Shown piece by piece: positions 6,838 to 49,741 of a DNA stretch of 64,000 nt (positions are counted from its first letter, which is position 1; each line of letters begins with the position of its first letter). A model generated the notes under the pieces. That model was not told where the DNA came from. It was given only the letters and a program-made list of their open reading frames with translations, and did no database searches. Position numbers and translations under genes: made by a program. The DNA comes from Candidatus Dojkabacteria bacterium (GTDB lineage: Bacteria; Patescibacteriota; Dojkabacteria; B142; OLB20): positions 12,000 through 75,999 of the forward strand of contig DAOMOX010000004.1 of the NCBI GenBank assembly GCA_035444565.1. Direction: 5' to 3'.

Positions 6838-6866
6838 CATTAAATTGTCATATTCCCTTTATTGTT
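6834..6866 (+). terminator. Candidate intrinsic terminator downstream of rpmA
   Basis: Hairpin ATGACA-TTAAAT-TGTCAT (6834-6851) overlaps the rpmA TGA stop and is followed by T-rich ATTCCCTTTATTGTT. Confidence 0.4.
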
Positions 6867-6886
6867 AGATAATAACCTTATTAACA

Positions 6887-18691: not shown

Positions 18692-21600
18692 TGTAGATAT
18701 ATTTTTTCACAGTAGTGATAAACTCTGGAGATACTCTGACGAATCTTTCGATACTTTTTTTTGCACCCAAATCTCCATATATTATTGTTAATTTAATATT
18801 TCCGGGGTTTTGAATTATAGCTTTTTTGATCTCCATAAGTCTAGATTTATCCTTCTCTCTTGATATATCGATGCTTAGCTGGTCTTGTTTATCAATATCA
18901 CTTGCATCTGCCATATCATCAACGATTAAACTGAATTCATCATTCCTGAAATTTACAGATGCTTGCACAAATACAGACCTATTTTCAACCAAGAAATTAT
19001 TCACCTTCTCAAAAGCATCCGGGAAAACAACCGCCCCACCTTTACCTTCCATGTCTTCAATATCCAGGAAAGCCATTGGCTTAGAGCCTTTTTTTGTATA
19101 TATTTTTTTTACTTTTGAAATCAATACAATAATTTTTATTTTGGTGCCTGATTTCATTTTTTGTGCTTGACGCAAATCTATAAATTTATTGAGTAAAATC
19201 ACATCTGAGAAAGCTTCTAACGGATGTTTGCTCAGATAAATGCCCAACAATTCTTTCTCCCAACCAGTTTTTTCTTTGTCAGTTTCTTGAGGTAGTAGAG
19301 GTAATGGAGTAGCTGGAGTTTCAGTTTCCTCGCTTGAAATGCCAAATAAAGTTGATTGACCTCCTTTTAGGGCTTCTTCACTTCGTTGTATTTTGGTATA
19401 CACGATTGGTGCAACCTCAATCAGTTGTGTTCTCGAACCAAACTCGTCAAGCGCTCCTACTTTGATTAGATTTTCTAGGTCTTTTTTTGTGAGTCCATGG
19501 GTTCCCACTTTGGTGATTAAATCATCAAGGTTTTTAAATTCGCCTTTTTTATTTCGAGCTTCCACAATATTCTCAAGTGATTTAGTTGAAACACCTTTTA
19601 CCCCGCCCATTCCAAAACGAATCTCTTTGTCACCTTCGATAATAAATTCCAAATGACTTTTGTTAATGTCAGGTGGTAGTAGTTTGATTTTCATGTTCTT
19701 CGCCTCTTTCAGATCACGCTCAAGTTTATCGATTGAGTTAATGTCGGTTTCCATCAATCCAGCTAAAAATTCCAAAGGATGATGTGTTTTTAAATATGCT
19801 GTTTGATAAGCAATCATTGAATAGCAAGCGCTGTGTGACTTATTGAAACCGTAATCAGCGAAGGGTTCTAGATAAGAAAATATTTTTTCAGCAGTTTTTT
19901 TATCTCTTTTGTTTTTAACTGCCCTCTCAAAAAATAATTCTTTTTCTTTTGCCATTACTTCTGGTTTTTTCTTACCCATAGCTCTTCTAAGCATATCGGC
20001 TTCTCCAAGTGAGTAGTTTGCGAATTCCACAGCTATGTTGATGACTTGCTCTTGATAAATCGCAAATCCGAAAGTGGTCTTCAGGATTGGCTCGAGGCTA
20101 GGATGAATGTAATCAATTTCTTGTTCTCCTCTTTTGCGTAAAATATAGTCTGGGATGTATTTCATTGGTCCTGGTCTATACGCTGCATTCAAAAACACCA
20201 GGTCTTCAAATTCAGTTGGTTTCAAATCACGTAAGTATTTTTTCATTCCTTCTGATTCAAACTGAAAGATTCCTGTGGTATCTCCTTTTTGAAATAATTC
20301 GTAGGTTTTCTTATCTTCTAGGCTGATTGAAGATAAGTCTAAATCAATATTTTTTGTTTGTTTGATCTTTTTTAAAGTATTTTGGATTACGGTAAGATTA
20401 GAGAGACCTAGGAAATCGAACTTCATTAATCCTAAATATTCGATATTGTGACCTTCTACTTGAGTTATAAGTTTGTCTCCTCGTACTTCTTTTTGTATTG
20501 GAACATAATCTGTAATCGGGGTCGGTGTTACTAAATATCCACAGGCATGGATTGATACGTGTCTAGCAATGTTTTCAAGTTTTTCAACGTATTTAGCTAA
20601 TTCTTCAAGCTGAGTGGAACCTTTAATAATTTCATCAAACTCCTCGACTTCATCACGCATTTTTTGAATGGTATGTACCCTACCAAATTTTACGATTACC
20701 ATTTTCGACAGTCTATCTGCGATTTGCAAATCTATGCCCATTACTCTTGCAACGTCTCGAATCGCGGCTTTCGTTTTTAATCTTCCAAATGTTCCAATAA
20801 AGCTGGTGTTTTCATGACCATACTTTTTGCTCATGTAATGAAACAATTCATCACGTCTATCATCTTGGAAATCAATATCAAAATCAGGTGGTGATGGTCT
20901 TTCCGGATTTAAGAATCTCTCAAAAATCAGTCCAAATTTGAATGGGTCCAAATCTGTTATACCAAGTATGTACGCAACTACACTACCAGCCCCAGAACCT
21001 CTTCCTGGTCCTACCAATATACCTTGGCTCCTCGCCCACGTAACATAATCTTCTACAACCAAGAAATAGTCGTTGTAACCTTTGTTATTGATTATTTCTA
21101 ATTCGTAATCAATACGTTCTTGCAGTTCTTTTGTTAACTCAGAATAGCGGTTTTTAAGAGAATCCATTACTTTCTTTCTCAAAGAATCTTTCGTTTTTTC
21201 AGGTGAGAGTTTTAAGTCATATTTAGGTTGTACTCTTTCGAATAAAATGTCGTATTTTTCAACAGAATCAGCAATTTTTTGTGTATTCTCGAGAGCTTCA
21301 GGATAATCTGGAAAGAGCTTTGCTAGCTCATCTTGGCTTTTAATATAAAACTCGGTGGAGGAGTATTGACGACGTGCTGGATCTTCAAGTTTTTTCCCAT
21401 CACTAATACACCAGACAATTTCTTGGACTTTATGGTCTTCTTTTTCAATATAATGTGTGTCACAAGTAGCAACATAAGGTAATTTAAGTTTTTTGGCAAT
21501 TTCTACTTGTTTCTCAACTAAATCTTCTGCTTCTTTAATTCCGTTCCTTTGTAGTTCAATATACACATCATCAACACTACTTTGTAAAAATTTTATCCAT

Positions 21601-22073
21601 TTAATTGCCTTTTGTTCATCACCAGCCATTAGATATTTATTAAAATTGCTACCTAGGCAACCGCTTAATGCAATCAAACCTTTTCCATATTTTTCGATTA
21701 ATTCTCTATCCGCTCGAGGTTTATAATAAAAACCTTCCATAAAAGCGTGAGATACTAGTTTTAGGAGATTATGATATCCTTCTTTGTTTTTCGCTAACAG
21801 TGTCAAGTGATATCTTTTATCATCAATTCCTGGTGTTTTATCGAATCTGGTTCTCTCGGCAACGTATATCTCGCAACCAATGATAGGCTTGATTCCTTGG
21901 TAATTGCATTCTTGCCAAAATTCAAATGCTCCATACATCACACCATGATCGGTAAGTGCTGCAGAGTTCATTCCGTAGGATTTTACTTTTCCAACATATG
22001 CAGGAATTTTGGCTACTCCATCCAGTAGTGAATATTCGGAATGTGCATGTAAATGTATGAAATTCTGGCTCAT
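18684..22073 (-). CDS. dnaE: DNA polymerase III alpha subunit
   Basis: PHP domain start MSQNFIHLHAHSEYSLLDG. 1129 aa, collinear with DnaE. Stop overlaps the rsmA start. Confidence 0.95.
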   Translation of the reverse strand: MSQNFIHLHAHSEYSLLDGVAKIPAYVGKVKSYGMNSAALTDHGVMYGAFEFWQECNYQGIKPIIGCEIYVAERTRFDKTPGIDDKRYHLTLLAKNKEGYHNLLKLVSHAFMEGFYYKPRADRELIEKYGKGLIALSGCLGSNFNKYLMAGDEQKAIKWIKFLQSSVDDVYIELQRNGIKEAEDLVEKQVEIAKKLKLPYVATCDTHYIEKEDHKVQEIVWCISDGKKLEDPARRQYSSTEFYIKSQDELAKLFPDYPEALENTQKIADSVEKYDILFERVQPKYDLKLSPEKTKDSLRKKVMDSLKNRYSELTKELQERIDYELEIINNKGYNDYFLVVEDYVTWARSQGILVGPGRGSGAGSVVAYILGITDLDPFKFGLIFERFLNPERPSPPDFDIDFQDDRRDELFHYMSKKYGHENTSFIGTFGRLKTKAAIRDVARVMGIDLQIADRLSKMVIVKFGRVHTIQKMRDEVEEFDEIIKGSTQLEELAKYVEKLENIARHVSIHACGYLVTPTPITDYVPIQKEVRGDKLITQVEGHNIEYLGLMKFDFLGLSNLTVIQNTLKKIKQTKNIDLDLSSISLEDKKTYELFQKGDTTGIFQFESEGMKKYLRDLKPTEFEDLVFLNAAYRPGPMKYIPDYILRKRGEQEIDYIHPSLEPILKTTFGFAIYQEQVINIAVEFANYSLGEADMLRRAMGKKKPEVMAKEKELFFERAVKNKRDKKTAEKIFSYLEPFADYGFNKSHSACYSMIAYQTAYLKTHHPLEFLAGLMETDINSIDKLERDLKEAKNMKIKLLPPDINKSHLEFIIEGDKEIRFGMGGVKGVSTKSLENIVEARNKKGEFKNLDDLITKVGTHGLTKKDLENLIKVGALDEFGSRTQLIEVAPIVYTKIQRSEEALKGGQSTLFGISSEETETPATPLPLLPQETDKEKTGWEKELLGIYLSKHPLEAFSDVILLNKFIDLRQAQKMKSGTKIKIIVLISKVKKIYTKKGSKPMAFLDIEDMEGKGGAVVFPDAFEKVNNFLVENRSVFVQASVNFRNDEFSLIVDDMADASDIDKQDQLSIDISREKDKSRLMEIKKAIIQNPGNIKLTIIYGDLGAKKSIERFVRVSPEFITTVKKYIYNE

Positions 22074-36539: not shown

Positions 36540-37340
36540 ATGGCAATTTCTGTTTCTATACCTAATACACCTAAGACTAAAAAGGAGAATATTATTGCGA
36601 CTTATAATTTGCATAAATATTTCTATACAGGTGTTGGCGAAACCCAAGTTCTGCATGGAATAGATTTGGAAATTAAAAGAGGTGAATTTATCATCATATT
36701 TGGACCATCTGGCTCAGGTAAATCTACCCTTCTCCATTCAATGATTGGACTAGAAAGTCCTACCAAAGGTAGAGTTGAGTTATTTAATCAGGATCTTTAT
36801 GCTCAAAATGAAGACGAAAGATCAATGACTAGATTGGAGAAAATTGGAATTATGTACCAACAACCAATATGGGTAAAAGCAATGAATGTAGCTCATAATG
36901 TAGCCTTACCATTAAATTTGCTAGGTACTCCACATAGAGAAGCTATGAAAATTGCCGAGGAAAAATTGAAAAGCTATGCTATGGATAAGTGGGCTAAATA
37001 TAAACCAACTGAGTTATCCTCTGGACAACAGCAAAAGATTTCATTGATACGTGCTTTAATTACAGAGCCGGAGATACTAATCGCTGACGAGCCTACTGGT
37101 AATCTTGATATAGATTCGAGCAAGAGATTAGTTGAAGGTTTGAAAGAACTTAATATTATCGGTAGGACCGTGATAGTAGTCACACACGATTTACAATATC
37201 TATCCTACGCAGATAGAACTTTCTATATTAAAGATGGTAACCTAGCTGGAATTTATATGCAGGATGAGACAAAAGAACTGATAGACGATGTTCTAAACAA
37301 AGGTAAATCAATATTTAAATTAGAAAAAACTGCTAAATGA
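36540..37340 (+). CDS. ABC transporter ATP-binding protein (MacB/LolD/FtsE-like)
   Basis: Walker A GPSGSGKSTLLH, signature LSSGQQQKISLIRAL, Walker B ILIADEPTGNLD. Confidence 0.9.
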   Translation: MAISVSIPNTPKTKKENIIATYNLHKYFYTGVGETQVLHGIDLEIKRGEFIIIFGPSGSGKSTLLHSMIGLESPTKGRVELFNQDLYAQNEDERSMTRLEKIGIMYQQPIWVKAMNVAHNVALPLNLLGTPHREAMKIAEEKLKSYAMDKWAKYKPTELSSGQQQKISLIRALITEPEILIADEPTGNLDIDSSKRLVEGLKELNIIGRTVIVVTHDLQYLSYADRTFYIKDGNLAGIYMQDETKELIDDVLNKGKSIFKLEKTAK

Positions 37341-38863
37341 ATTTAGAAGAATTAAAATCAAGATTTGGTCCAATATTTGAAACGCTATTTAGCTCTGTCT
37401 TTATAGAGATTACTATCATCTTAATAGTGATTATGTTGGTAGTGATAAATATTCAGAGGTTTAGACGATATAGGATTAAAGTCTCTTTAATTGATCTACT
37501 CTACATTGCTGGTGTTAACCTAATGGTTCGTAGAACAAGAACAATAGTAACTATAGTGGGTATGTCGATAGGTATAGCTTCGATTGTATTTCTAGTTTCT
37601 ATCGGCTATGGGATGCAGGACTTGGTGATTTCAGAAGCAACCAGGCTGGAAGAGTTGAAACAAGTGCAAGTATCAACCCAAGCTGGAAGCAAATTAAGAT
37701 TGAACGATACGGTTTTAGCTGATTTAAAGAAGATCCCTAATGTCCAAAAGACTCTGCCGGTAGTTGCTATAGTCGGTGACATGTCTTACAAACAATCAAA
37801 TGCCGCTATTCCGGTTTATGGGGTGACAACAGATTATCTCAAAGAATCAGCAATCCAACCTGTTTATGGAGAACTCTTTGAAAGTAATGAGACTTATTAC
37901 GAAGTTAAACAAGCTGAGAATTTAACAGAAGTGAATGAAACAAAGAATACAGAAAGTGCAAACTTACTGGAAAATCCAGTAGAAGTTTCCGAAGGTGAGG
38001 AGTTTATCGAACTTGATACAGAAAATACAGATGGAGAGAAAATTGACGTTGATGAAATAAATTTGCCAAATACTGCTTTAAAAGAAATCGTTATGAATAG
38101 ATCCGCAATCGAGATTATTGGATTGCCTTTTGATGACGCTGTCGGAGAAAACGTAAGTCTTGCTTTTACTGTCACAAACCAACATCTCAATAGAGAAGGA
38201 ATAAAAGTTGTTTCATTACCAGAAAATTTCACTATTGTAGGAGTACTCTCTGATAACTCGGAACCAGCAATCTACACGCCTTTCTTTAATTTGAGAACAT
38301 TAGGAGTTGTGAATTTTACAGAAGTCCGAATAATCACCGATGATCAAAATAATGTGCAAAGAATTAGAGAACAAGTTGAAGCGCAAGGTTATCTCACTAC
38401 ATCCGTTCAGGATACAGTTGCAGAAATTGAACAATTGTTTAGTAGCGTGAGGATTGGGTTAGGACTAATTGGAGCATTTGGTTTAGCTATCGCTTCACTC
38501 GGAATGTTTAACACATTGACAGTTTCTCTTCTTGAGCGAACAAAAGAAATCGGTCTGATGAAGACTATAGGTATGAAATCTGCGGAAGTTCGTCTATTAT
38601 TCCTTATTGAGTCATTGTTAATGGGTTTCCTAGGAGGTGTGTCGGGCTTGATGTTGGGTTACTTAGGAGGGAAATTAATCAGTTTGATATTAACCTCATA
38701 TTCTATTAGTAAAGGTGGTAATGCTATAAGCGTGAGCAGTATTCCTTTCACATTCGTCTTCTTGGTAATTGCATTATCTATCATGGTGGGATATTTGACA
38801 GGATTATTCCCCGCTAGAAGAGCTACAAAAATTTCTGCACTAAATGCTCTTCGTTACGAATAA
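37337..38863 (+). CDS. ABC transporter permease of the MacB/FtsX (type VII) family with large extracytoplasmic domain
   Basis: TM1 is followed by a ~300-aa extracytoplasmic domain with an acidic insertion. C-terminal FtsX-like 3-TM bundle LERTKEIGLMKTIGMKSAEVRLLFLIESLLMGFLGG. Start overlaps the ATPase stop. Confidence 0.85.
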   Translation: MNLEELKSRFGPIFETLFSSVFIEITIILIVIMLVVINIQRFRRYRIKVSLIDLLYIAGVNLMVRRTRTIVTIVGMSIGIASIVFLVSIGYGMQDLVISEATRLEELKQVQVSTQAGSKLRLNDTVLADLKKIPNVQKTLPVVAIVGDMSYKQSNAAIPVYGVTTDYLKESAIQPVYGELFESNETYYEVKQAENLTEVNETKNTESANLLENPVEVSEGEEFIELDTENTDGEKIDVDEINLPNTALKEIVMNRSAIEIIGLPFDDAVGENVSLAFTVTNQHLNREGIKVVSLPENFTIVGVLSDNSEPAIYTPFFNLRTLGVVNFTEVRIITDDQNNVQRIREQVEAQGYLTTSVQDTVAEIEQLFSSVRIGLGLIGAFGLAIASLGMFNTLTVSLLERTKEIGLMKTIGMKSAEVRLLFLIESLLMGFLGGVSGLMLGYLGGKLISLILTSYSISKGGNAISVSSIPFTFVFLVIALSIMVGYLTGLFPARRATKISALNALRYE

Positions 38864-38955: not shown

Positions 38956-38983
38956 TCCCTGATCAAGTCAGGGAAATTTTTAG
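38956..38983 (+). terminator. Hairpin plus T-run between the ABC permease and the giant gene
   Basis: TCCCTGA-TCAAG-TCAGGGA followed by AATTTTTAG. It lies ~10 nt upstream of the annotated start of the giant ORF. Confidence 0.4.
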
Positions 38984-38993
38984 TTGAATTGAT

Positions 38994-41900
38994 TTGAAAT
39001 GTTTCTCAAAAAAAGTTAAATTATATAAACCAATTTCACTAATAATGCGCGTTTCGCGTCCTAATAAAAGCTTGCAGAGAATGCATCGAGACTATTCTCG
39101 TATATTTCGTATACGGAAGAATTTCATACGCAAAAAACTTAAACAAATCTCCAAATTTTTGTTCTTCAAGAAGATAACATTAGCTAGGTGGCAGTTGAAT
39201 ACTTTTACTGTCATGATGCTATCTCTTGGATTTGTCCTTGGCACCTATGCGATGGTTATGGAATTAGTCCCGATTCTGAGGGCTCTCGATGAAACTAGTT
39301 ATACTTTAGTTCAAGGAGGAGATGGTGAATTAACTTCTGGTAGTGGAACTGACGTTGTGATTTCAGCTTCCGCAGTGTCTTTGGGAAAAGACGATAACTG
39401 GTTTGATATGGGCTGGAACCTGAAGAGACAGTTGACTATCAAAAATCTATCAGCAATCACACTTCCTTCAAATACTCCTATTCAATTAACATTAAACACA
39501 AAGGAATTATTTGATGCTTCTAATATTCAGAATGACTGTGATGATCTTAGAGTTATTTATTCTACTGGGGTGGGCAACCATACAGAACTAGCTAGAAGCT
39601 ACTATAAAGCAAGTGGTGCCACGGATTGTTCTGATTCTACTGCGACTGTAGTCACATTCCCAATTCAAGCGGAGCTGACTGCTGGTGCAACAAGCAGCAA
39701 TTACTATTTATACTATAAAAATTCAGGTGCGACTAACCCTGGTTTTGGTGATAATGGCTATAACATAGGCGACGCTGAGGCAACCATGGTCTGTCCGTTT
39801 AATGGTTCGACGACTTGTGTGGATGGTGAGACACCAAGCACTGCAACTGGAGCTTTAAGATTTTCGGGAGGGAGTGCGATTGAAACAGATGGTGCTTGGG
39901 ATAATCCTGATAAAATCACTGGACCGACATTGCCTTCAGTTTCGCAATACACAATAGAGTTCTTTGTCAAAAATAATGGTAACTTTAATTCGTATGCAGG
40001 AATTTACGGAGGGTGGGGTGGTTTTGACGCAAATGATATAAATACTGGAGGCAGTGTAAATGGAATGTTGTTAAATCCTGGTTCGCTAGGTCTGATAGGA
40101 TTAACAGTAAATCACTCTAGTGGTCAATGGGTTCATTTAGCATTCGTTTATGATGGAGTAAATTATTCTGTTTATGAGAATGGTAATAGGATTTACTATA
40201 CACCAAAGACCTTCAGTATTTCAGCCCAAGGGTTCTATCTGGGTGCTAGGAATAGCTACCGAGGATTCAAGGGTCTATACGATGAATTTAGAATTTCCAA
40301 TATTGCAAGGTATTCAGGGAGTTTTACAACCCCAACATCTAACTTCACTGCCGATGCAAATACTTTAGTTTTGTATCATTTTGATGAAAATGGAGATGAT
40401 TTACGAAATACAGGTAAAGCTTATGATTCGAGTGGAAATGGATATCATGGAACAATCTCAGGAGCGAAATACACTTCAAACACCCTCGGTATTTATCAGG
40501 GTACAGCTACTCCTATAAAGACACAAAATATTTTTACTCACGAAGGGGTTCTGTTGGAAGAAGGGGCTACCAATCTAATTACAAATCCGAGTTTTGAAAA
40601 TACAACTTACAACCTAAATTGGGGTAATAGTTTCTTCAATTACAACAACACCTTGGATACCTTTACTGCTTCTATAACTAAAAGAAATAGTGCTGGTCCA
40701 TTTACGTCTGGTGTGATACTACAAGATGATTACGGAGATACCAGTAGTTTGACTTCTGATCAGTTGTCTTTTTCACACGGAACAACTTTGTGGGGAGATT
40801 TTTCAAATAGTAGTGATGATGACCAAGGGACATTAGTTTTCTGGTGGACTCCTGAATATAGTTCTTCCACGATGAATACTGGAAGTACTATGTTTATGGA
40901 AATGCGTTCTTCAAGTAATTTTACATATAACTGGGTAGATGATAAATTTTACCTTGGGGGTTCTCCAATTGGCACTTATGATTTTTCCGCAGGACAGACA
41001 TATTTAGTCGTCTTACGTTGGGATAAAGATAATAATATAATTGCAAATACTGCAAATCTTTCAATAGACAATGTAAGCATAGGAGATGCATCATCATCTG
41101 GACATGTTTGGGAAGATGATTGGGGCTCAACTAATTTATGGGCATTTGATGGTGTAGTCGAAGGTATGACAGTTTACCGAAGACCACTTTTCGATGGATT
41201 GTATGGTATTGACATGGGAACCGGAGATGAAATTGAACAGATTTATAATGCTGGTGCAGGTAAAGATCCTACTTTGATAACAGGAAGTTGGGACGTAGTT
41301 TTTGCAATGCCAACTAACTCTGATAACGGTGTTATTACAACTGGGACAGGGAATGCATGGAGTCATCCACATCAATTAAACCTCCTATATACAAATTCAA
41401 CTAATACGGGTGGTTATATGTTAAATGGTGATTATAGTATTGATAATTGGACTGGTATTGCTAGTCCTCAATCAATCAGTGCATTAAGCACTGTTGAAAA
41501 AATTTATTCTGGTGGTTATAAGATAGAATCAAATTTAATAAATCAAGGTATTTCAAGAAGCTTTGCAGCATCAAGCGGAGGCGATTATGTAATTAGGGCG
41601 ATTGGAAATTCAGATGGAACCTGTACTCCAGTTGTTAAAATTTTACGAGCTGATGGAATTACGGAGATTACAAGTAAGGTGGGAACATCTCTATCAACAA
41701 AAAGCTCGCCAGAAGTATATATCTTCACTTGGGAATCTCCAGCGCTTGAAGATAATATTATCCAACTTCTGAATACCAACAGTAGTGGTATTTGTTATTG
41801 GCATCAAGCTGAGGTTTATAATAACTTGTTTAATAATCCTTCTTTAGAATCTGGAGCAGGCGACCCATGGATACCTACCAGTTGGTGGAATGCAAACATT

Positions 41901-44900
41901 CCTGTCGGGGGGACTCAGCAAGAAACAACTATAGTGCACAGCGGTCAATCATCAATTAAACACAACCTAAACTCACTAAACACTTCAATAGGAACAAATC
42001 TAAATACAAATCCTCCTACAGGAAGTTACTTTGTAGTCGGAGGACACTTTTACGGTGTACCAAATGGTAACGGTAAAAATCAACTTAGTGCCCATAATTA
42101 TTCAGATTTACAACATCAGCCATTACAAAGGCAGTTATTGGGTTTAAAGATAGCTGAATGGCACCATACAGTAGGTGTATATCGGAAGGCACAGGGAAGT
42201 AACACAATTTGGGGTGTAGGTTTAATTGAGGGAACAGGAGTTCATCCAGTATATTCTGACGATCTGTATGCTATTTCTTTGAGTGATGTCTCCCTCAATG
42301 TGAGTCCTGCGAGTGAAGTTAATAGTACAGAAACGACAGGTATAAGGGTTGATGGAAGAGATGTGCTAAGTCAACCCATAACGGGCTTATCAGCTGATAA
42401 AGGACTTGTAAAGTTTAAGTTCACTCCGAGACATAGCTTTAGTATTGCAGATAAGTTCGGAGTAGCAAATCCAGTTATTGTTACACTTACATATGATGGA
42501 AATAGCTATATTAAAATTCAAAAGCAAGACCCAACGACGCTTCGAATGATTGTAAAATTTAATGATAGCCAATCTCTAAATCTTGATTGGAATAACGCTA
42601 TTTTAAATGCTGGCACATCTTATGACTTTGAGATACGTTATTATTCAGGTGGAACTATTAGTTTATCGGTTAATGGAGAAGTAAAAGCGATAGCTTCTGG
42701 TGCCACAAATTTCGCTAACGTTCCAAATACAGCGTATTTTGGTTCTGATGGAGGTGCGAATGTCTATGACTCAACTATTAATAGTTTTGTTTCTTTAACA
42801 CCTACAGAAAATCTAACACAATCAAATCTAAAATTTGGGACAAGGAGTCTTAAACTAGTGAATAGTGGAGCTTCACCGGACGAATATGTAACGGACTTTA
42901 CCTCTACGACGAATGCAGCACATACAGTTAGTGCATATATTTTCAATGCGACCTCTGGGGATATTGGAGAAGCAGTAAGCACCTCTGTCGCACAAATAAT
43001 TTTAGATGGAGAATTACAAACGACTCAGTACGAGGATGCTGGAGGAGGTTGGTGGAGGTTGTTAAGTAGGATAAATAAAATTTATGGAGATTATCCAACT
43101 ACTAATATGGATTCTGACCAAGGCCTTTTCACAGGTACATCAAACAGGCTTCTTTCACAAAGCATTAAACCAACCCAAAACCTTCAAACAGTTCAGGTTG
43201 TAATTCCTTTGAAAAAGGTAGGTGCTGGAACTCCTACAACTACCCATTATCAAGTTCGTATCAATACAGATATTGGTGGAGCTCCATCCGGGACTCTTCC
43301 TCCCGGTGGACATTCTTCTTGTATAGCAGTAACTACAAGTACCTCTTATCAAAATATAAGTTTTACTATACAAACAAGTCTCGCAGCTAATACAACATAT
43401 CATTTGGTATTAACCCCATACGTAAATAGTAACTGTAGCACTTTGCAAACAACCGCTGATCCTACAAACTACATAGCATGGGGATATGATGGATCAACTT
43501 CAAGTTACCTACCTGGTGAGAGATCGATATACGATGGAAGCACTTGGACCCAACAAACCTCAAAAGATCATATTTTCACACTGTACACCGGGAGGACTAT
43601 GGTTGTTGGTTTACGTGTTATGCCAGGTAAAAGTGTTTATATGGATGGGGTGCAGGTTGTAAGTTCTACTTCTCTTTCTAACCCATTGCCTCATACTTAC
43701 ACAGATGGTAGTCTGGGTGCTGGTTATGGATGGACCGGGGAAGAACACAACTCTACAAGTACTCGAACACGAGACTCTCTATACTATCCCGTTCAAGACT
43801 CTTTTGGTCCTACTTCGGGAACAGTGAGCTTTTGGTTTAAACCATACAGGCCATTTGGAAGCGGATATGATCAGTCTGCTCAACACTGGATATATTCTTC
43901 ACATACAACTCAGGGTTCACAATCCTCGGTAAGTGCTTATGTTGATAGTGGGAGAAATTTAAACTTTAGGTTGGCAAATGATGCAAACCAAGTTTTTGAT
44001 ATAAGTCAGGGACCCTGGAGTGCAGGAATATTTCAAGTACAAAAATGGCACAATATGGTACTTGTTTGGGATGGGACAAAGTTCAGCGCATATATAAATA
44101 ATGTATTGTATGGAGAAATTAACTATACAGGTACACTGACAATTAATAACGCCAATATGGGCATAGGGTCTACTTCAGGATGGGCTCCAGCTTTTGGAAC
44201 AATCTCGGATTTCAGAATCTATAACAACTCATTAGATGTAAATGAAGTAGGATACCTCTATCAATCCGGCCTCTCTACGCACACCCAAAGTGATATCGAT
44301 GATAAGAAATACAAAACTACTGCCGATTATGAATCTGGAGTACTTGATCTCGGGAATGCTGGACAATGGGGGAACTCACCAAATTTGTTGATTACTGAAG
44401 CTTTAAACGGAAATACCATCAATTACCAAACTCGGAGTTCAGAGGATAACCTCGTATGGTCTGATTATGCTGCCGTTAGCGGTGACACACCTAATCTAAC
44501 GATTTCAAGCCCTCCAAAAAGATATCTACAGGTAAAGGCAACTTTGAATTCACCAAACCAAAACACGACTCCTGAGTTTAATGGTGCACAAATCAATTAC
44601 GTTCAAGATGCAATACCACCAGAGGTTAACGCTACAGAAACAACTATGAAAAGAACAGTCTCTGGGGATACTATAATAGAAAATAACTTTTCAAATTCTC
44701 AAGCTCCGTATTTCAGCTGGGTTGAGGGTGGAGATGATGCCGATGGGTCTGGACTTCGTGGATATTGTTTATATTTAGGTCCAGACATTGCGGGAAATCC
44801 AGCAAATGATAAAGGACTTTTGGGTTCAAGTCCTGGTTCAACTGCAAATACGACGTGTCCTTTTGTGGTAACTACAAATTCCATTGATTTTGCAAATACA

Positions 44901-47213
44901 AATCTAAGAGGAAACACATGGTTACAATCAACTACTGATCCATATTACATAGTTATCAGGGCTGTTGATAATACTGGAAATGTTTACGACCTAGAGCCAG
45001 AAATATTCGGCTTCAAGTTTGATAACACTCCTCCTACTAATCCTAGCGGTTTATTTGCCCCTGCCAGTTACCAGAGATCTTTCGATAGTTTTGTAATATC
45101 ATGGCCAGCCGATGGGACAAATATGGCTCAAGACACACATTCATTAGTAAAAGGTTTCCAATACAAACTTGGTACAAACGGTACTTGGTATGGAGGTGGA
45201 CACACCGGAGATCAAGATTGTAATGACGTTTTGACAACAAATACCTACGCGCTTGATGCCAACTTCGATAACCTACCGTCTGGAGAAACTCCGTTTTATC
45301 TTAGGACTCTTGACTATGCGTGTAATACATCCGCTTCGGCAATTTCGGCAATCTTAAAATACAACTCGACTGCACCGTCAGCTCCGCGAGATCTGTCGGT
45401 TACTCCAGTAACTAACGATAAAAATGAGTTCTCTTTTACTTGGTTGACCCCAGAAATATACCAGGGAGCGGAATCCAACTTGTCATATTGTTACACAGTT
45501 AATACTCTTCCTACGTCTGGTACTTGTATTTTTACAAGCAGTAAATCATTAAATCCTGATGCATTTGCAACACAACCTGGAGAAAATACATTCTATGTAG
45601 TAAGTCGTGATGAGGCCTCAAATATTAACTATGGGGATTATGCATCAATAAAATTCTACGCCAACACATCAGCCCCTGGTGTTCCTAGAAATTTAGATGT
45701 TGCAGATATTTCTGTTAAAACAACTAAAAACTGGAGACTGACCGTATCGTGGGACGAACCAGAAGACTTAGGTGCTGGAGTTGCAAAATACTTTATCTAT
45801 AGATCATTTGCTGAAAATGCTAATTGTAGTGAAAACTTCTCTTTATTTGGAAAAGTTGGAGAAACTGCTGGAGGCTCTTATGTTGACACAAATCTTCAAC
45901 AAAAAGATCATTTCTATTGTGTGAGAGCATGCGATTCGACAAATAACTGTTCTGCAGTGTCTTCGACGGGTAGTAACTTCCCTGATGGTAAATTTACTAG
46001 TCCTGCGATACTTGAATCAGCCCCTGTTGTAAGTAGTGTTTCAACAAGAAGTGCGAGGATTAGCTGGATAACAGATCGAGATTCAGACTCAAGAATTTCA
46101 TATGGATTGGCAAGCAATGATTATTTCAAAGAAGAAGTTGGAAATTCAGAGCAACGAATTGATCATGATTTGATACTTACAAATCTAGAGCCTGGAACAA
46201 CATACTATTTCCAAGCTAAATGGACAGATGAAGATGGAAACTTAGGATTATCCGACGAATATACATTTAAAACTGCACCACCCCCAAGTGTGAAGGATGT
46301 TGTGGTCAGTAGTGTTGGCATTAGTACTGCAGTTATCAACTTCACGACGACTGGTTCATCAAAGGTAAACTTCCTCTATGGTACTTCCGTAAGTTTTGGA
46401 TCAAGTAAAGAAATCGCAACTAGTCCTCTTGAGTCAAGATACACTACCCTACTTGATGGTTTATCAGAAGGAAGTAAGTATTATTTCAGAGTTGATACTG
46501 AAGATGACGAAGGCTATGTTTATGAAGGTACTGTTCTTGATTTCAATACATTGCCACAACCAAAATTATCGAATGTGCGAATTCAACAAGTGAAAAATGC
46601 TGCTCAACCAACAGTCTTAGTCTCCTGGGAATCAAACACAGAAGTCACCTCTGTGGTTAGTTTATTCCCTGAGGGTAAAGCAGATTTGATTAGAGAGGAA
46701 GTTAATTTAGATTTAAAAGGTGGCGAACATCAGATGATTATTCGTGGGCTGTTACCGAATACTGTGTATGAGTTATTAGTTAAGGGGTCTGATAAATTAG
46801 GAAATCAAGCAACATCAACTGCACAGAGAATAACAACTGCAACTGATACTAGACCTCCTGCAATTTCAAACGTACAGATTGAAGCTGGTAAAGGTAATGT
46901 TACTGATAGTTCTCAATTCATAGTTACATGGACAACAGACGAGCCCACCACTTCACAAGTTGAATATGGAGAAGGTACAGGTAGTAGCTATCCACAGAGA
47001 TCACAATTGGATAGCAATTTTACACTTGATCACACCATCGTAATTTCTGGTTTAGCACCTGGAAAGGTTTACCATTTGAGAGCAGTTTCAACTGACGATG
47101 CAGAGAACACAACATACTCTCTAGACTATGTCGCAATTACTCCAAAAGAGTCTAATAGTGCAATAGAGCTTGTGATTAGTAGCTTGTCTAGGGTGTTCTC
47201 CTTCCTGAGATAA
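38994..47213 (+). CDS. Giant (2739 aa) TM-anchored cell-surface protein: DUF2341-like, multiple LamG/ConA-like jellyrolls, CBM4/9-like modules, FN3 domains and four C-terminal PAP-N/FN3-like repeats
   Basis: Basic N-terminus then TM ([19 protein letters not shown]). DUF2341-like aa ~130-255 (…[12 protein letters not shown]…[11 protein letters not shown]). LamG-like TIEFFVKNN…[19 protein letters not shown] and [12 protein letters not shown]…[19 protein letters not shown]…[11 protein letters not shown]-like [21 protein letters not shown]3 [14 protein letters not shown]…FSFTWL and [11 protein letters not shown]…[10 protein letters not shown]. Four ~95-aa repeats [17 protein letters not shown]…[28 protein letters not shown]…[24 protein letters not shown]…[26 protein letters not shown]…[16 protein letters not shown]. 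Confidence 0.8.
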
Positions 47214-47216
47214 ATT

Positions 47217-48506
47217 TCATCGACTGCCTATAACCGGAATCTCCTCCCACCTTGTAGTATATCTCGGTGAACGAAGTGCCTGTTCTTTGATTGGATTCAA
47301 GAAAACCATTTGATTCGCATACTTAACTGTGCCTTTTCCCCAGATAGAGTTGAGTTTATCAAACGATTTCATAAGGATTCTCTGTTTTATATCTTCTTGA
47401 GGATTTGGGGTAGTGAAAATGTTTTGTTGGTATTCGCCTTTATTGTAGAAATTCTCCAAAAACACCCCTGCCCTTTTGTATTTGTATCCTGAGCGGAAAA
47501 TCTGCCTCAGGCCATTGAGCGCATTCTTCGTCAAGAGTGGTGTGTAATCGGTAGGTGTTTCGAGTTTTATCAAGTATGAATTAGAGTATCGTCCTTCGGG
47601 GGTAAATCTATCTGTTGTAAGGAAAACCCAAATCCTGGATGTTACTGAACCCTGTGCTCTTAGGCTTCTGGAGGCACTATCGGTGAAGCGTGCTACCGCT
47701 TGAGCGACTTGGTTGTATTCGGTGTAAGCTTTCTTGAACGTACGGCTACAGAGTATGCCTTTTTTCGAGCTACGATGTGGGTTGATTGGGTAACATCGAA
47801 TACTATGGAGTTCAAGCCAGGTACGTTCGAGCATAACTCCATATTCTTGTCGAAGTAGATGTCTATCAGCTTTGAGGAGGCTTGGGATGTCTGCAATATC
47901 AAAAATCTTTAATCTTCTAGCAATACGTCCTCCTATTCCCCAAATGTCATCAATGTCGAGATGTTTTAAATATTCAATATGTCTATAGTCGGTAATGTCA
48001 TTTATCTGATAAACCCCATCATTTTCGATGAATTTCTTGGCGATTTTGTTAGCAAGTTTGGCTAAGGTTTTGGTGTTTGCTAGTCCGATTGAGATTGGAA
48101 TACCTGTCCAGCGATAAATTGTCTCTTTCATTTCTATTGAGTTCCGAAGCATTCTCTGTGGTGACGTTATAGGAATTCGTAGAAATGCCTCATCAATAGA
48201 ATATATCTCAATTTCCTGACAAAACTCATGTAGTGAACGAAATACTCTCTCTGACATATCCTGATAAAGTGTAAAGTTTGCGGAGCGCACAGCGACGTTG
48301 TTCTCGATAAATCGATCTTTCCATTCAAATAGAGGAGCTCCCATGGGGACTCCCATGGCTTTCAATTCGTTTGATCTGGCGATGACACATCCGTCATTAT
48401 TAGAGAGAACCGCTGTCGGGCGATTACGGAGTGTCGGATCAAAGACTCTCTCGCAAGAAACATAGAAATTATTGCAGTCGACGATACCATAAATATCGGA
48501 AGACAT
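47217..48506 (-). CDS. umuC: Y-family translesion DNA polymerase, UmuC-like (Pol V catalytic subunit)
   Basis: IYGIVDCNNFYVSCERVFDPTLRNRPTAVLSNNDGCVIARSNELKAMGVPMG aligns closely with E. coli UmuC (MFALCDVNAFYASCETVF…VVVLSNNDGCVIARN). Confidence 0.85.
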   Translation of the reverse strand: MSSDIYGIVDCNNFYVSCERVFDPTLRNRPTAVLSNNDGCVIARSNELKAMGVPMGAPLFEWKDRFIENNVAVRSANFTLYQDMSERVFRSLHEFCQEIEIYSIDEAFLRIPITSPQRMLRNSIEMKETIYRWTGIPISIGLANTKTLAKLANKIAKKFIENDGVYQINDITDYRHIEYLKHLDIDDIWGIGGRIARRLKIFDIADIPSLLKADRHLLRQEYGVMLERTWLELHSIRCYPINPHRSSKKGILCSRTFKKAYTEYNQVAQAVARFTDSASRSLRAQGSVTSRIWVFLTTDRFTPEGRYSNSYLIKLETPTDYTPLLTKNALNGLRQIFRSGYKYKRAGVFLENFYNKGEYQQNIFTTPNPQEDIKQRILMKSFDKLNSIWGKGTVKYANQMVFLNPIKEQALRSPRYTTRWEEIPVIGSR

Positions 48507-48976
48507 CAGAGTTCATGAATATTGTAGGCAACTACACCCCATATCTCGAAGTCGTTCTCCGGAGTAATACGATAAAGTGTGGATCTGGTATTCCAGGGCG
48601 TCAAATATGTGATGTGTTTAGATATTAATATCTTTTTGATTAATAATTCACCATCTAGGCTCACGACAACGATTGATTTATCTGTAATGGGTAATGAACG
48701 ATCCACTACAAGTAAATCTCCTTTGTGGATTCCCCATTTTCTCAAGTCATTATCCCCTGCTTTCATAAAAAATGTACTGGAAGGCTTTTTAATAAGATAT
48801 GACTGAATATCGAGTTTTAGGTCAGATTCGTTTCGAATAGGAGTCGAAAAAGCTACTGTAGAAAGTTCGAGATCCTTTCGAGATTCATTTTTCTGTTCTT
48901 CGTACAATCTAGTCGAACGGAAGTCCTCCTGATAGTCTAAGAATGTTGTTTCGGGTGCGTAGATATTATTCTGCAT
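48506..48976 (-). CDS. umuD: UmuD-like S24-fold protein with substituted nucleophile (GDND instead of GDSM) and no Ala/Cys-Gly cleavage site
   Basis: KAGDNDLRKWGIHKGDLLVVDRS…VVVSLDGELLIKKI aligns with UmuD [21 protein letters not shown]…AAVDGEFTVKKL. The Lys is conserved and the Ser is Asn. Start shares 48506 with the umuC stop and the other end overlaps the lexA stop. Confidence 0.7.
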   Translation of the reverse strand: MQNNIYAPETTFLDYQEDFRSTRLYEEQKNESRKDLELSTVAFSTPIRNESDLKLDIQSYLIKKPSSTFFMKAGDNDLRKWGIHKGDLLVVDRSLPITDKSIVVVSLDGELLIKKILISKHITYLTPWNTRSTLYRITPENDFEIWGVVAYNIHEL

Positions 48977-49628
48977 GTTTGGTTGAGAAATTAGGGTTAT
49001 CTAAAACTGCTACGACTTTGCCGTAGATATCTGTATCTCCTAGAGAAGATGCATCTAGGTAGAATGGTTTGTGTCGTGTGTTGGTGGACTCTGGGTAAAG
49101 TACCACGATGTTTCGGTCTTTTTTGATAGTTTTGATAGTTGCGCAGTTATCGATAATTGCTAAAACAACATCGCCATTTTTGATATCAACGTTTTTTGCT
49201 ATGACTGCATACTTGCCATCCTCGAGTGTTCCTCCATCAACTTCACGCATGTTCATAGAATCTCCTTTTATCATAAGGGCGAAGACGTCCTTGGTGACTG
49301 GAAGGAGACTGCGATTAATACGTAAATAGCCAAGTTGTTGTTCCTGGGCTATCACCATAGGTGCTCCAGCATTTGCATAGCCGAGGATATTTACATCTAT
49401 AAACATCTGTCCGGACTGTGTTTCCCGAAGAGTTATACCTCGGGACGACGAAGATCGATTTATCAATCCTTTTTTCTCAAGTGCTTGTAGATGTTTAACG
49501 ACTGCTCTGCGAGTGATACCAAGTGCTCGCTCCATCTCTGTAAGTGTGGGTGCTTGGCCAGTTTCGATAATGAAGGACTTTATAAGGGATAGTATTTCGT
49601 TTTGTCTTGTGGTTATGGTATGTGTCAT
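48966..49628 (-). CDS. lexA: LexA repressor (wHTH + S24 autopeptidase, intact)
   Basis: Likely start is the second Met (MTHTITTRQNEILSLI…). The ORF-track start at 49685 would translate the upstream repeat region. wHTH LTEMERALGITRRAVVKHLQALEKKGLI. Cleavage site ANAGAP, GDSM and IKTIKK are conserved. Confidence 0.8.
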   Translation of the reverse strand: MTHTITTRQNEILSLIKSFIIETGQAPTLTEMERALGITRRAVVKHLQALEKKGLINRSSSSRGITLRETQSGQMFIDVNILGYANAGAPMVIAQEQQLGYLRINRSLLPVTKDVFALMIKGDSMNMREVDGGTLEDGKYAVIAKNVDIKNGDVVLAIIDNCATIKTIKKDRNIVVLYPESTNTRHKPFYLDASSLGDTDIYGKVVAVLDNPNFSTKHAE

Positions 49629-49629
49629 A

Positions 49630-49673
49630 TAGGTATACTTAATATACTTAAAATGGTATACAAGGTATACAAG
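49630..49673. promoter_or_regulatory. Repeat-rich candidate LexA operator region at the lexA start: TAGGTATACTT, (TATACTTAA)x2, (GTATACAAG)x2
   Basis: Three GGTATAC cores plus tandem direct repeats directly abut the lexA ATG. The 11-mer TAGGTATACTT recurs upstream of dnaE. Confidence 0.35.
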
Positions 49674-49741
49674 AATGTCAAGCAATTAATATAATTTTAT
49701 GAACTTTAATATTGGAAGATTGAAGTACTAAGTTATCTAAG

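Follow-up and report, generated by a model that had tools for sequence, protein, structure and literature searches.

A predicted giant surface protein of a Dojkabacterium combines a hypervariable lectin-like head with a constant stalk and a C-terminal tail linked to MacB/FtsX-type ABC transporter genes

The window, the whole 64,000-nucleotide stretch of Candidatus Dojkabacteria DNA that we analyzed, carries on one strand the genes for an ABC transporter ATPase and its permease, followed by a giant gene. The open reading frame on which the original prediction of a giant surface protein was based is real and uninterrupted (38994..47213, plus strand). The predicted length of 2739 aa holds for the maximal reading frame, whose codons are counted from a TTG, but the true start is probably the ATG at 39045 (M18), which gives 2722 aa, because two close homologues (P0003 and P0004) have as their first residue the Met equivalent to M18 and because a promoter-like site overlaps the TTG. 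The NCBI model of the same protein (P0001) begins only at M74 and thereby loses the N-terminal part of the hydrophobic segment. Residue numbers below are counted from the TTG at 38994. The features of the locus are as follows.

36540..37340, +: ABC transporter ATPase, partner gene 1, 266 aa (Pfam ABC_tran, 104 bits)
37337..38863, +: MacB/FtsX-type (type VII ABC) permease, partner gene 2, 508 aa (Pfam MacB_PCD plus FtsX)
38956..38974, +: terminator-like hairpin between the permease and giant genes, 8-bp stem then AATTTTT (pattern match only)
38994..39022, +: promoter-like site TTGAAA-17-TAAATT (pattern match only), overlapping the TTG of the maximal reading frame
39045..47213, +: giant protein coding sequence from the probable ATG, 2722 aa (2739 aa from TTG 38994)
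39045..39284, +: signal sequence with basic n-region, h-region aa 71-95 and putative signal peptidase I site A97|L98 (from charge, KD and homologue junctions)
39399..39779, +: DUF2341-like beta module, aa ~136-262 (AF2 pLDDT 64-85; profile comparison)
39846..40358, +: first LamG jelly-roll, aa ~285-455, Pfam core 311-440 (PF13385, 38.9 bits)
40359..41288, +: conserved region with a divergent LamG jelly-roll, core aa ~589-754 (hhalign)
41376..42779, +: CBM-like/ConA-like jelly-rolls, roughly three modules, aa ~795-1262 (AF2 pLDDT 70-92, all-beta)
42789..43061, +: small conserved module, aa ~1266-1356 (BLAST segments in P0043-P0059; also in a tail-less subfamily of LamG giants)
43062..43598, +: variable 178-aa insert, aa 1357-1535 (missing from P0002, P0003 and P0004)
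43686..44288, +: second Pfam LamG jelly-roll, aa ~1565-1765, core 1600-1752 (PF13385, 56.9 bits; AF2 model)
44319..45977, +: five FN3/Ig-like beta-sandwich stalk domains, aa ~1776-2328 (AF2 pLDDT mostly 75-90)
46011..47150, +: four tandem Pur_ac_phosph_N-type FN3 repeats, aa 2340-2719 (PF16656, 94.5 bits, four stretches)
47151..47210, +: conserved amphipathic C-terminal tail of 20 residues (family consensus AAFDIIxKNLExxFGFL)

The hairpin and the promoter-like site lie between the permease and the giant gene, so the pair and the giant may not be co-transcribed in the window. We also note that the position of the promoter-like site is consistent with homologues that start at M18. The GC content of the giant gene, described earlier as above the window average, is indeed higher than elsewhere (0.389 vs 0.341), but the excess sits at codon position 2 (0.456 vs 0.315), with GC3 alike (0.271 and 0.283), and is therefore an effect of amino-acid composition. 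The supposed richness in N-x-S/T sequons is explained in the same way: the 46 observed fall within the expectation from shuffled sequences (42 +/- 5.8), so there is no enrichment.

The positive charge ascribed to the N-terminus is pronounced, with 17 K/R and one D/E between residues 18 and 65, and is followed by the sole hydrophobic segment of the protein (aa 71-95, KD 1.83). The original reading of this segment as a transmembrane helix was correct in that there is only one, but a cleavable signal peptide is more likely than a signal anchor, as suggested by a conserved, signal peptidase-like junction of the form Pro ... A|L-x-E-T after the h-region. Among 27 homologues, position -3 of the putative cleavage junction is I, V, L, A or S, and 20 have a Pro between -7 and -3; the A, G or S at -1 was imposed by the search pattern. 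The h-region spans ~25 residues, more than is usual in signal peptides, so the segment may instead be an uncleaved anchor. If the peptide is cleaved, the C-terminus rather than the N-terminus would be the cell-proximal end. The basic n-region and the single hydrophobic segment agree with the outward-facing topology that had been proposed. The 18 cysteines fall into nine near-neighbor pairs along the sequence.

Pfam searches and structure prediction recovered the LamG- and FN3-type folds anticipated from the sequence. In the head, a DUF2341-like module is accompanied by six or seven lectin-type jelly-rolls, of which three or four are LamG and the others CBM-like. The window copy of the DUF2341-like module has no Pfam match and only seven of 26 homologues match PF10102, weakly (best E 1.1e-4); its assignment is borne out by comparison with a profile seeded on the Pfam-validated DUF2341 region of P0167 (hhalign 97.4%, E 1.5e-11). 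Of the several LamG modules proposed, two exceed the Pfam cut-off for Laminin_G_3 (27.6 bits), and the first of these matches the one at aa 1565-1765 in profile comparison (hhalign 97%), as does the divergent third (95%, E 3.8e-8); a fourth, at aa 1101-1262, is weak (23%). In the AF2 model, a helix (aa 1749-1763) comes after the second Pfam LamG. The predicted CBM-like modules likewise have no Pfam match, and are seen in Foldseek comparisons of the AF2 model of aa 96-1270 with tandem CBM22 (4xup), CBM16 (3oea) and a porphyran-binding CBM (8xmz), with TM-scores of 0.68-0.75 normalized to the target (0.75 for 8xmz); these matches, and others to the CBM-like domains of Vip3 and Cry1, hold for the model as a whole, as the matched query residues were not reported. 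The 178-aa insert has no Pfam or PDB match and is 32-36% identical to a module in P0042, P0047, P0049 and L042.

The best-conserved block of the N-terminal half is the region at 40359..41288, which starts with an HFDENGDD...SGNG motif and a second motif of 10 residues, and over much of which AF2 confidence is below 50. Two stretches (aa 456-545 and 724-815) are highly conserved, with invariant D, E and H residues and an invariant AWSHPH, and could house an enzymatic or metal site. Neither the GH16 ExDxxE motif nor HExxH is present in the giant, no catalytic motif was found among those tested, and no catalytic Pfam domain was detected in it or in 64 homologues.

The AF2 model of aa 1540-2739 (pLDDT 77.7) contains nine beta-sandwiches after the LamG domain at aa 1600-1752, a stalk that would be ~30-35 nm long if extended, and its best PDB matches in Foldseek are FN3/Ig chains (ROS1, contactin, gp130, fibronectin 7-10 and the GhpA base). 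The FN3 content thus goes beyond the four C-terminal repeats, with five further FN3-like sandwiches, among which one internal pair (aa 2097-2154 and 2196-2257) is 32% identical. The four repeats, which the original prediction had likened to the purple-acid-phosphatase N-terminal fold at nt ~46014-47153, match Pur_ac_phosph_N/fn3 in four stretches across aa 2346-2739, well above the cut-off of 30 bits. When the repeats are aligned as had been suggested, their pairwise identity is 16-29%, which indicates old, diverged domains, and the first still matches the fourth in profile comparison (hhalign 98.9%). Giant surface proteins of cell-contacting bacteria also include the GhpA 'grappling hook' of Aureispira (PDB 9fly), whose base matches the C-terminal half as an FN3/Ig sandwich chain (E 1.7e-16); the likeness is only that of a generic FN3 chain (TM about 0.14-0.18, 13% identity), and we do not claim homology.

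The protein ends in a short tail found in every homologue that bears the C-terminal half and has an intact C-terminus, with one Phe invariant. AF2 places a helix at aa 2723-2734 with low confidence (pLDDT ~46-48), and with a hydrophobic moment of 0.44-0.50 its amphipathicity is borderline by Eisenberg's criterion. The giant lacks an LPXTG motif as well as a hydrophobic stretch or a basic tail at the C-terminus; it has no RTX repeats, and Pfam domain search detected no wall-binding domain. The conserved terminal helix, and the link to the adjacent ABC transporter described below, go beyond the original account.

The giant had been taken for a lineage-specific protein. Its C-terminal ~950 aa (stalk plus amphipathic terminal helix), which we call the chassis, are common to well over 100 clusters at 50% identity, and members sampled across several Patescibacteria groups are labeled Dojka-, Woese-, Collier- and Shapirobacteria, WWE3 and Saccharibacteria. 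A profile of aa 1540-2739 returned at least 150 representatives (50% identity), all above 885 bits, most of which align to profile positions ~220-1166 in one stretch finishing at their own C-terminus; about 125 of the 140 top representatives that were new in this search carry the tail, judged by motif and by eye. Their heads vary, and include LamG, Kelch, DUF2341 (81 bits) and BclA_C domains. Large Patescibacteria surface proteins with FN3, ConA and DUF2341 domains have already been proposed as host-adhesion candidates (PMC13059738, PMC11809585). Like the giant, they are very long and have fibronectin type III, concanavalin-A-like and DUF2341 domains together with a TM segment or signal peptide; in the available text of these reports, adhesion and host recognition are proposed without experiment, and the domains are listed with no description of a shared ~950-aa stalk, a helix, variable heads or MacB-type linkage. 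Our literature search found no description of this combination of chassis, variable heads and linkage to a MacB-type ABC transporter.

Comparison with near-identical genomes reveals how unevenly the giant evolves. Between the window and L001 or L009, identity is 86-100% for flanking genes, with six of the seven at 95-100%, and 95-97% for the ABC pair (the ATPase 96.6% in L001). The giant itself is a mosaic when aligned with its close relative P0003: the signal and DUF2341 region are 83-89% identical up to aa 217 and 71% beyond, the stalk and tail 87-100%, and the LamG cores 12-19% (19% for the first and 12% for the second, aa 1600-1752). The 178-aa insert is present in the window copy only. 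The jelly-roll head is thus hypervariable between near-identical genomes and the stalk constant.

The two genes upstream encode an ATPase whose best NCBIfam matches are LolD, FtsE, DevA and the MacB ATPase, and a permease with an extracytoplasmic stretch of ~285 aa and five hydrophobic segments, including an additional one at the N-terminus. The nearest solved chains to the permease are YtrF (9o9x, 1.5e-29), MacB, Spr0695 and LolC; the available text on YtrF places it in an operon of B. subtilis that has been linked to adaptation to antibiotic stress and to cell-wall synthesis (PMC12772383). An ATPase and a MacB_PCD/FtsX permease adjoin the giant on the same strand in the window, in L003, L005 (on both sides), L006, L007 and L008, and in L017-L019, L021, L023, L025 and L027, upstream or downstream and often with overlapping stop and start codons. 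Counted after clustering into lineages, in loci chosen for containing giants, the pair is adjacent to 14 of 15 informative tail-bearing giants and to none of a small control of four tail-less LamG giants (Fisher p = 0.0013). Four of five later loci also have it: L085 (labeled Saccharibacteria), L087, L088 (a fused MacB) and L089 (a BclA_C head). L002 and L086 have no adjoining MacB-type pair, and no membrane-fusion or TolC-like genes were adjacent in the loci inspected. Across these loci, adjacency tracks the C-terminal tail regardless of head type and gene order.

On balance, we favor the view that the giant is a Sec-exported modular adhesin with a swappable head, whose base would work with a dedicated ABC complex. 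The parts of this reading differ in strength. That the giant is a surface-exposed binding protein is probable from its sequence; a binding role is plausible because all recognizable modules are extracellular binding or stalk folds, the cysteines fall into near-neighbor pairs, none of the catalytic motifs tested was found and the head is hypervariable. Functional coupling to the ABC pair is likely, judging from gene neighborhoods, and the tail is put forward only tentatively as the coupling element. The long basic signal sequence would direct Sec export and probably be cleaved after Ala97. The head would bind a ligand, most likely a glycan or other envelope component of another cell, and would be exchanged or diversified fast, and the chassis would be held constant because it works with the transporter encoded next door. 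The tail and membrane-proximal stalk may dock onto, or be handled by, the ABC complex, which would anchor the giant at the membrane and/or use ATP hydrolysis on the cytoplasmic side to act on it, in the manner of FtsEX with its extracytoplasmic partners and LolCDE with membrane-tethered proteins. FtsEX with PcsB, EnvC, CwlO or RipC offers a parallel: there too, an ATPase and a permease of the MacB/FtsX superfamily have a genetic link to an extracytoplasmic protein that they do not transport, and the working idea of cytoplasmic ATP hydrolysis acting on an outside partner (type VII ABC 'mechanotransmission') is the same. However, the partner here is a ~2,700-aa lectin/FN3 protein without hydrolase or coiled-coil, with which physical interaction is putative, the extracytoplasmic domain of the permease is larger and varies more across homologues (permease lengths 377-791 aa), and the pairs appear dedicated to giants, outside a cell-division context.

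A plain adhesin held by an uncleaved N-terminal signal anchor, with the FN3 repeats distal and an unrelated ABC transporter (for peptide or antibiotic resistance, for example), seems unlikely. The long h-region after a strongly basic N-terminus, the hairpin and promoter-like site that part the genes in the window, and the ties of YtrF to an antibiotic stress and cell-wall operon are all in keeping with it, yet it is at odds with the tracking of the tail by the ABC pair, with a junction that fits the -3/-1 rule and is preceded by a Pro in most homologues, and with the pairing of a constant C-terminus and a variable binding N-terminus, the polarity seen in stalk adhesins that are anchored at the C-terminus. 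Gram-positive LPXTG/sortase adhesins of the SasG/Aap type share that order of N-terminal signal, binding modules, repetitive beta-sandwich stalk and conserved C-terminal element, but in the giant a short amphipathic helix takes the last place and is linked to an ABC pair rather than to a sortase. Somewhat less probable still is that the ABC complex serves maturation rather than permanent anchoring, as a LolCDE/Aat-style extractor that pulls the signal segment or the tail from the bilayer and passes the giant to the wall, a surface layer or the medium. The linkage evidence serves this reading equally, the permease is related to LolC, LolE and LolF, the ATPase matches LolD best, and MacB-family members engage their substrates on the outer side of the membrane without carrying them through it, as LolCDE and Aat do with tethered proteins on that side of the cytoplasmic membrane. 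All scores here nevertheless fall far short of the equivalog cut-offs (LolD, for example, 183 vs 308 bits), the giant lacks a lipobox, its candidate handle is the amphipathic helix at the C-terminus instead of an acylated N-terminus, and a fully released giant would need to be held on the cell, for which neither LPXTG nor a wall-binding domain was detected. As a group, these bacteria probably lack an outer membrane.

Two further readings take the transporter as an importer or an exporter. That the giant is a secreted exoprotein capturing or degrading glycans for nutrition, its LamG and CBM modules binding polysaccharide from the environment or a host, a conserved block being catalytic and the ABC pair handling the products, appears improbable. 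The matches of the head to CBM-rich glycoside hydrolases (GH101, CBM22 of Xyn10C) and ConA-like folds, and the two conserved blocks with their invariant residues, fit such a role, but the giant has none of the catalytic domains or motifs sought, LamG cores so divergent between near-identical genomes suit recognition better than a housekeeping enzyme, and MacB-type transporters are, to our knowledge, not importers. Very improbable is type I-like secretion, with the C-terminal helix as an uncleaved signal for export by the adjacent ABC transporter. It has precedent in LapA, SiiE and MpIBP, giant repetitive RTX adhesins encoded beside a dedicated ABC transporter and carrying their signal at the extreme C-terminus, where the conserved tail of the giant also lies. 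The giant, in contrast, has its own N-terminal Sec-type signal and no RTX repeats, its transporter is of the MacB/FtsX rather than the HlyB type, without membrane-fusion or TolC-like neighbors, and we know of no transmembrane channel in MacB-type permeases.

The preferred reading, that of an exported adhesin whose base works with its own ABC complex, concerns a tiny and probably symbiotic member of the Patescibacteria, and the linkage between tail and ABC genes offers a testable starting point for asking how these bacteria attach to other cells.

The giant protein is encoded by one uninterrupted reading frame directly downstream of an ABC transporter pair, and residues are numbered here from its first possible start codon, TTG 38994. 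The local arrangement is as follows.

36540-37340, + strand: ABC ATPase (PF00005), directly upstream of the giant gene
37337-38863, + strand: MacB_PCD/FtsX permease (PF02687 and PF12704), directly upstream of the giant gene
38956-38974: terminator-like hairpin preceding the promoter-like site and the TTG, and separating the ABC unit from the giant unit
38994-39022: promoter-like site overlapping the TTG
38994-47213, + strand: giant open reading frame, 2739 codons counted from the TTG

The NCBI model of this protein (P0001, 2666 aa) begins at M74 (39213), inside the sole hydrophobic segment, and so cuts off the first part of that segment together with the basic n-region before it. Because two close homologues, P0003 and P0004, begin at the residue equivalent to M18, and because the promoter-like site overlaps the TTG, the start is probably ATG 39045 (M18), which gives a protein of 2722 aa. 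The high GC content remarked on in the original prediction (0.389 in the gene versus 0.341 elsewhere) disappears as a peculiarity once codon positions are separated: the excess is found at position 2 with none at position 3, and is therefore a result of the Gly/Ser/Thr/Ala-rich composition. With a GC3 of 0.271, against a mean of 0.283 across 14 other genes, the giant gene matches its neighbors, and recently acquired foreign DNA in the form of a compositional island was rejected on that ground. The supposed richness in N-x-S/T sequons was likewise not borne out (46 observed versus 42.1 ± 5.8 across 500 shuffles), and the idea of an N-glycosylated envelope protein based on sequon enrichment was rejected, the count being no higher than composition predicts.

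Residues 18-65 contain 17 K/R and a single D/E and are followed by one hydrophobic segment (aa 71-95), with no others in the protein, so the bulk of the giant should be extracellular, in agreement with the outward topology proposed at the outset. That proposal also included one transmembrane anchor; the single hydrophobic segment stands, but the 'anchor' may instead be a signal that has a long n-region and can be cleaved, since the residues at the junction after it follow the signal peptidase I pattern. Among 27 homologues whose N-termini are intact, this junction consists of a Pro at -7 to -3 (20/27 homologues), I/V/L/A/S at -3, any residue at -2 and A/G/S at -1, followed across the putative cleavage point by L-x-E-[T/S]; the residues at -1 were set by the search pattern, those at -3 and the Pro were not. 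The h-region is long for a signal peptide, and the signal peptidase I-like pattern is conserved alongside it. The 18 cysteines of the protein form nine near-neighbor pairs along the sequence. Checks of the giant for catalytic or anchoring motifs (GH16 ExDxxE, HExxH, RTX, C-terminal LPXTG and PEP) were all negative. The sole match to a sortase motif, LPTSG at aa 2172, lies inside the protein, and a sortase-anchored surface protein was rejected as there is no C-terminal LPXTG with a hydrophobic stretch and basic tail; the C-terminus is an amphipathic helix.

The N-terminal part, or head, was predicted to contain a DUF2341-like module, LamG/ConA-like jelly-rolls and CBM-like modules. Two Laminin_G_3 domains (PF13385) are found above the Pfam gathering cut-off of 27.6 bits, at aa 311-440 (38.9 bits) and aa 1600-1752 (56.9 bits), and a third, at aa ~589-754, is visible by hhalign only (95%, E 3.8e-8); profile-profile comparison of aa 1101-1262 with LamG gave a weak 23%. 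The window's own DUF2341 module (aa ~136-262) has no Pfam match to PF10102 at E <= 1. The label is nevertheless correct, because homologous modules match PF10102 (7 of 26, weakly, with a best E of 1.1e-4) and because the module profile aligns with a validated DUF2341: two members of the same protein family, P0167 and P0188, carry bona fide DUF2341 domains at the same position (81.2 and 56.8 bits; cut-off 23.4), and a profile seeded on the P0167 region matches that of the window module at 97.4% (E 1.5e-11, hhalign). For the CBM-like modules there is similarity of predicted fold but no sequence match to any CBM family in Pfam at E <= 1 over aa 521-1560. The AlphaFold2 model of aa 96-1270 has a mean pLDDT of only 60.9, with confident stretches at aa ~136-245, 375-465, 795-1025 and 1125-1245. 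In Foldseek it resembles a tandem CBM22 (4xup), a CBM16 (3oea, TM 0.68) and a porphyran-binding CBM (8xmz; TM 0.75 to the target, rmsd 3.3 over 141 columns); neurexin LNS arrays and CBM-like domains from Vip3 and Cry1 are further matches. A PDB profile search with aa 505-830 was empty, and a Pfam scan of every member of the alignment of that region returned one weak LamG match and nothing else. A 28-bit match of aa 96-262 to a cytochrome c555 construct in the PDB profile search, with no stretch passing, was treated as spurious.

Three further segments of the head are distinguished by conservation or by their distribution.

40359-40628 (aa 456-545) and 41163-41438 (aa 724-815), + strand: the two blocks in which conservation across the N-terminal half is highest, both with AlphaFold confidence below 50
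43062-43598 (aa 1357-1535), + strand: 178-aa insert present in the window allele and absent from its closest relatives, P0002-P0004

Invariant in the two blocks are [16 protein letters not shown] and AWSHPH and, listed more fully, [40 protein letters not shown], and these regions may serve as a site for interaction, metal binding or catalysis. The insert has no match in Pfam or the PDB and is 32-36% identical to a module of a second subfamily of LamG giants; it has the look of a domain cassette that has passed from one family of giants to another.

The C-terminal region was expected to contain FN3 modules and, at its end, four tandem repeats of the purple-acid-phosphatase-N/FN3 type. Both Pur_ac_phosph_N (PF16656, 94.5 bits in four stretches) and fn3 (PF00041, 55.8 bits) score above their gathering thresholds, and four such units occupy aa 2346-2739. 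When aligned, as the original prediction had suggested, the four repeats are 16-29% identical in pairwise comparisons; they were revealed by tiling the sequence, whereas BLAST of the whole giant against itself returned no repeats. In the AlphaFold2 model of aa 1540-2739 (pLDDT 77.7), the LamG domain is followed by a short helix, then by nine beta-sandwiches and lastly by a helix at aa 2723-2734, and the best PDB matches of the model are FN3/Ig chains. The protein finishes with this amphipathic helix, the tail, ending ...FSFLR.

Giant homologues of 2,400-4,000 aa are common among Patescibacteria metagenome bins. Judged from BLAST segment boundaries, the N-terminal part is conserved, the middle is variable and the C-terminal half (aa 1535-2739) is collinear from end to end in ~37 homologues; the window fragment and its homologues were aligned as trimmed segments. 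A search of 1.84 billion representatives with a profile of aa 1540-2739 yielded no fewer than 150 clusters at 50% identity, each scoring above 885 bits; the majority match profile positions ~220-1166 in a single stretch that runs to their own C-terminus. Inspection by motif and eye places the same amphipathic tail at the end of about 125 of the 140 newly returned sequences, with the consensus A-A-F-D-I-I-x-K-N-L-E-x-x-F-G-F-L and one invariant Phe. The heads of six sampled members differ, and include LamG, Kelch propeller, DUF2341 and BclA_C domains; named members of the family come from Collier-, Shapiro-, Woese- and Dojkabacteria, WWE3 and one Saccharibacteria-labelled MAG. On this sequence evidence, the window giant is a member of a large family built on one conserved stalk-plus-tail chassis with interchangeable heads. 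The second LamG-giant subfamily has N-terminal modules in common with it but ends in LamG (...YNxGAVxFGP), without stalk and tail. Profile searches with the last 120 aa found only short gene fragments at contig ends, which were used as further test loci, and a scan of genome contigs found two loci only. The window contains another long reading frame (18684-22073, - strand, 1129 aa), which is without the tail motif and is unmatched by the ABC ATPase and permease profiles.

How differently the parts of the chassis and head evolve can be seen in two loci from very close relatives, L001 and L009, in which six of seven flanking proteins (UvrD-like helicase, ABC ATPase, permease, UmuC, UmuD and LexA) are 95-100% identical to those of the window and the seventh, a phosphodiesterase-family protein, is 86% identical. 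The giant itself compares with its close counterpart P0003 as follows.

Identity of the window giant to P0003, by region
Signal and DUF2341: 83-89%
First LamG core: 19%
Middle: 30-68%
Second Pfam LamG core (aa 1600-1752): 12%
Stalk and tail: 87-100%

Such apparently fast replacement of jelly-rolls on a frozen stalk is what would be expected of a specificity determinant that faces a partner or enemy. An SOS-type cassette (47217-49685, - strand) directly follows the giant gene and converges on it. It encodes a 429-aa UmuC/DinB-like polymerase with IMS domains, a 156-aa UmuD-like S24 peptidase and a 239-aa LexA, and it is kept in L001 and L009 (96-100% identity). The location of an error-prone polymerase beside a hypervariable surface gene may be a coincidence.

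The ABC pair has the domains of a type VII (MacB/FtsX) system: an FtsX domain, a MacB periplasmic core and a separate ATPase. The nearest solved relatives of the permease are YtrF, MacB, Spr0695 and LolC, and the best family matches of the ATPase are LolD, FtsE, DevA and MacB. The permease has five hydrophobic segments, compared with the canonical four of MacB/FtsX; the extra one, near the N-terminus (aa 21-39), is either the product of a miscalled start codon or an additional helix.

At homologous loci, an ABC pair adjoins the giant gene, downstream more often than upstream and on both sides in L005, and the stop and start codons of giant and ABC genes frequently overlap. L005 has two giants, one Kelch-headed and one LamG-headed, each followed by its own ABC pair, while at L007 (= L010, 1-24697) three tail-bearing LamG giants in tandem share one pair, whose ATPase is a double-cassette protein of 570 aa. 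After clustering at 90% identity, an ABC pair was found within 2.5 kb on the same strand for 14/15 informative tail-bearing giants versus 0/4 informative tail-less LamG giants (Fisher p = 0.0013, with a small control group, n=4), and among loci fetched later as a check an adjacent MacB-type ABC was present in 4/5; as all of these loci were chosen for containing giants, the counts say nothing of the genomic background of MacB pairs. Genetic linkage of the ABC pair to a putative extracytoplasmic partner is thus conserved. The positive check loci are L085 (Saccharibacteria-labelled), L087, L088 (with a fused ATPase-MacB protein) and L089 (with the BclA_C-headed P0204), and the negative one is L086, which together with L002 makes up the two fully flanked loci without an adjacent MacB pair. 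The giant genes at L086 (1574-6459) and L087 (1-6333) are split over two or three consecutive reading frames, which could reflect frameshifts, pseudogenes or assembly errors. At L088, the fused ATPase-MacB gene comes after the tail-bearing giant and lies beside genes for an Lcl_C (C-type-lectin-like) protein, a bAvd-like protein and a reverse transcriptase (RVT_1) at 5402-8254, a set that looks like a diversity-generating retroelement.

The reading we find most likely, with moderate confidence, is that the giant is exported by Sec, that its lectin-type binding head evolves fast while its FN3 stalk stays constant, and that the base of this stalk, C-terminal helix included, works together with a MacB-type ABC complex dedicated to it. 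Cleavage of the signal would make the C-terminus the cell-proximal end, and the polarity would then be the same as that of C-terminally anchored Gram-positive stalk adhesins, the giant having an ABC-linked helix where they have LPXTG. It is unlikely that the protein is instead an N-anchored adhesin with an unrelated ABC neighbor; the long h-region and the terminator-like hairpin that parts the ABC unit from the giant in the window would suit such an arrangement, whereas the conserved signal peptidase I-like junction and the tracking of ABC adjacency with tail-bearing giants argue against it. The negative GH16 and HExxH checks make a glycan-scavenging enzyme a poor candidate, and export by a type I-like system is highly improbable: there is no RTX GGxGxD motif, an N-terminal signal is present, the ABC proteins are of the MacB/FtsX rather than the HlyB type, and there are no MFP/TolC genes nearby, observations that led us to reject a type I-secreted RTX adhesin.

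A MacB-type complex working on the stalk base might dock it stably, actuate it mechanically in the manner of FtsEX, or extract and release the protein as Lol and Aat do; an extractor or release role seems to us rather doubtful. We give a similarly low likelihood to the idea that the cassette is an ATP-powered attachment device, in which the ABC complex would grip the C-terminal helix and the base of a ~30-nm FN3 stalk and relay ATP-driven movements by which the stalk could be extended, retracted, tensioned or released, with exchange of heads among strains changing host or ligand specificity.

Large FN3/ConA/DUF2341 surface proteins have been described in Patescibacteria and proposed as adhesins (PMC13059738, PMC11809585), and DUF2341 is also known attached to MotA/ExbB-like ion-channel subunits (PMC12505986). 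The giant, taken as a surface protein of many domains, belongs to an already known class. The literature searched yielded no published account of the chassis, the tail or the link between giants and MacB/FtsX proteins, an absence that is no proof of novelty, and we rate the combination of chassis, tail and ABC linkage, on in silico evidence, as a variant of known systems in which a type VII ABC transporter has a partner.

Patescibacteria (CPR) account for a large share of bacterial diversity, and in the current view most of them live attached to other microbes. To our knowledge, few of the molecules that establish this contact and give it specificity have been identified; giant surface proteins are regularly put forward as attachment candidates, without an organizing principle. 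The family described here offers one: a single chassis, swappable heads that diverge sharply between near-identical genomes, and a gene almost always accompanied by a MacB-type ABC pair, a cassette that is also present in a Saccharibacteria-labelled MAG (L085). Should the pairing have a mundane cause, the finding shrinks to a well-annotated, ordinary multidomain surface protein. If it reflects a physical complex, the tail, permease and ATPase would offer a defined target, accessible to genetics, for studying attachment in cultivable relatives, and giant adhesin-like proteins would join the partners of type VII ABC transporters. Were the attachment device itself real, host contact by these ultrasmall bacteria would be an energized and regulated process, and the giants would be a new partner class for type VII ABC mechanotransmitters and part of a general attachment machine of Patescibacteria.
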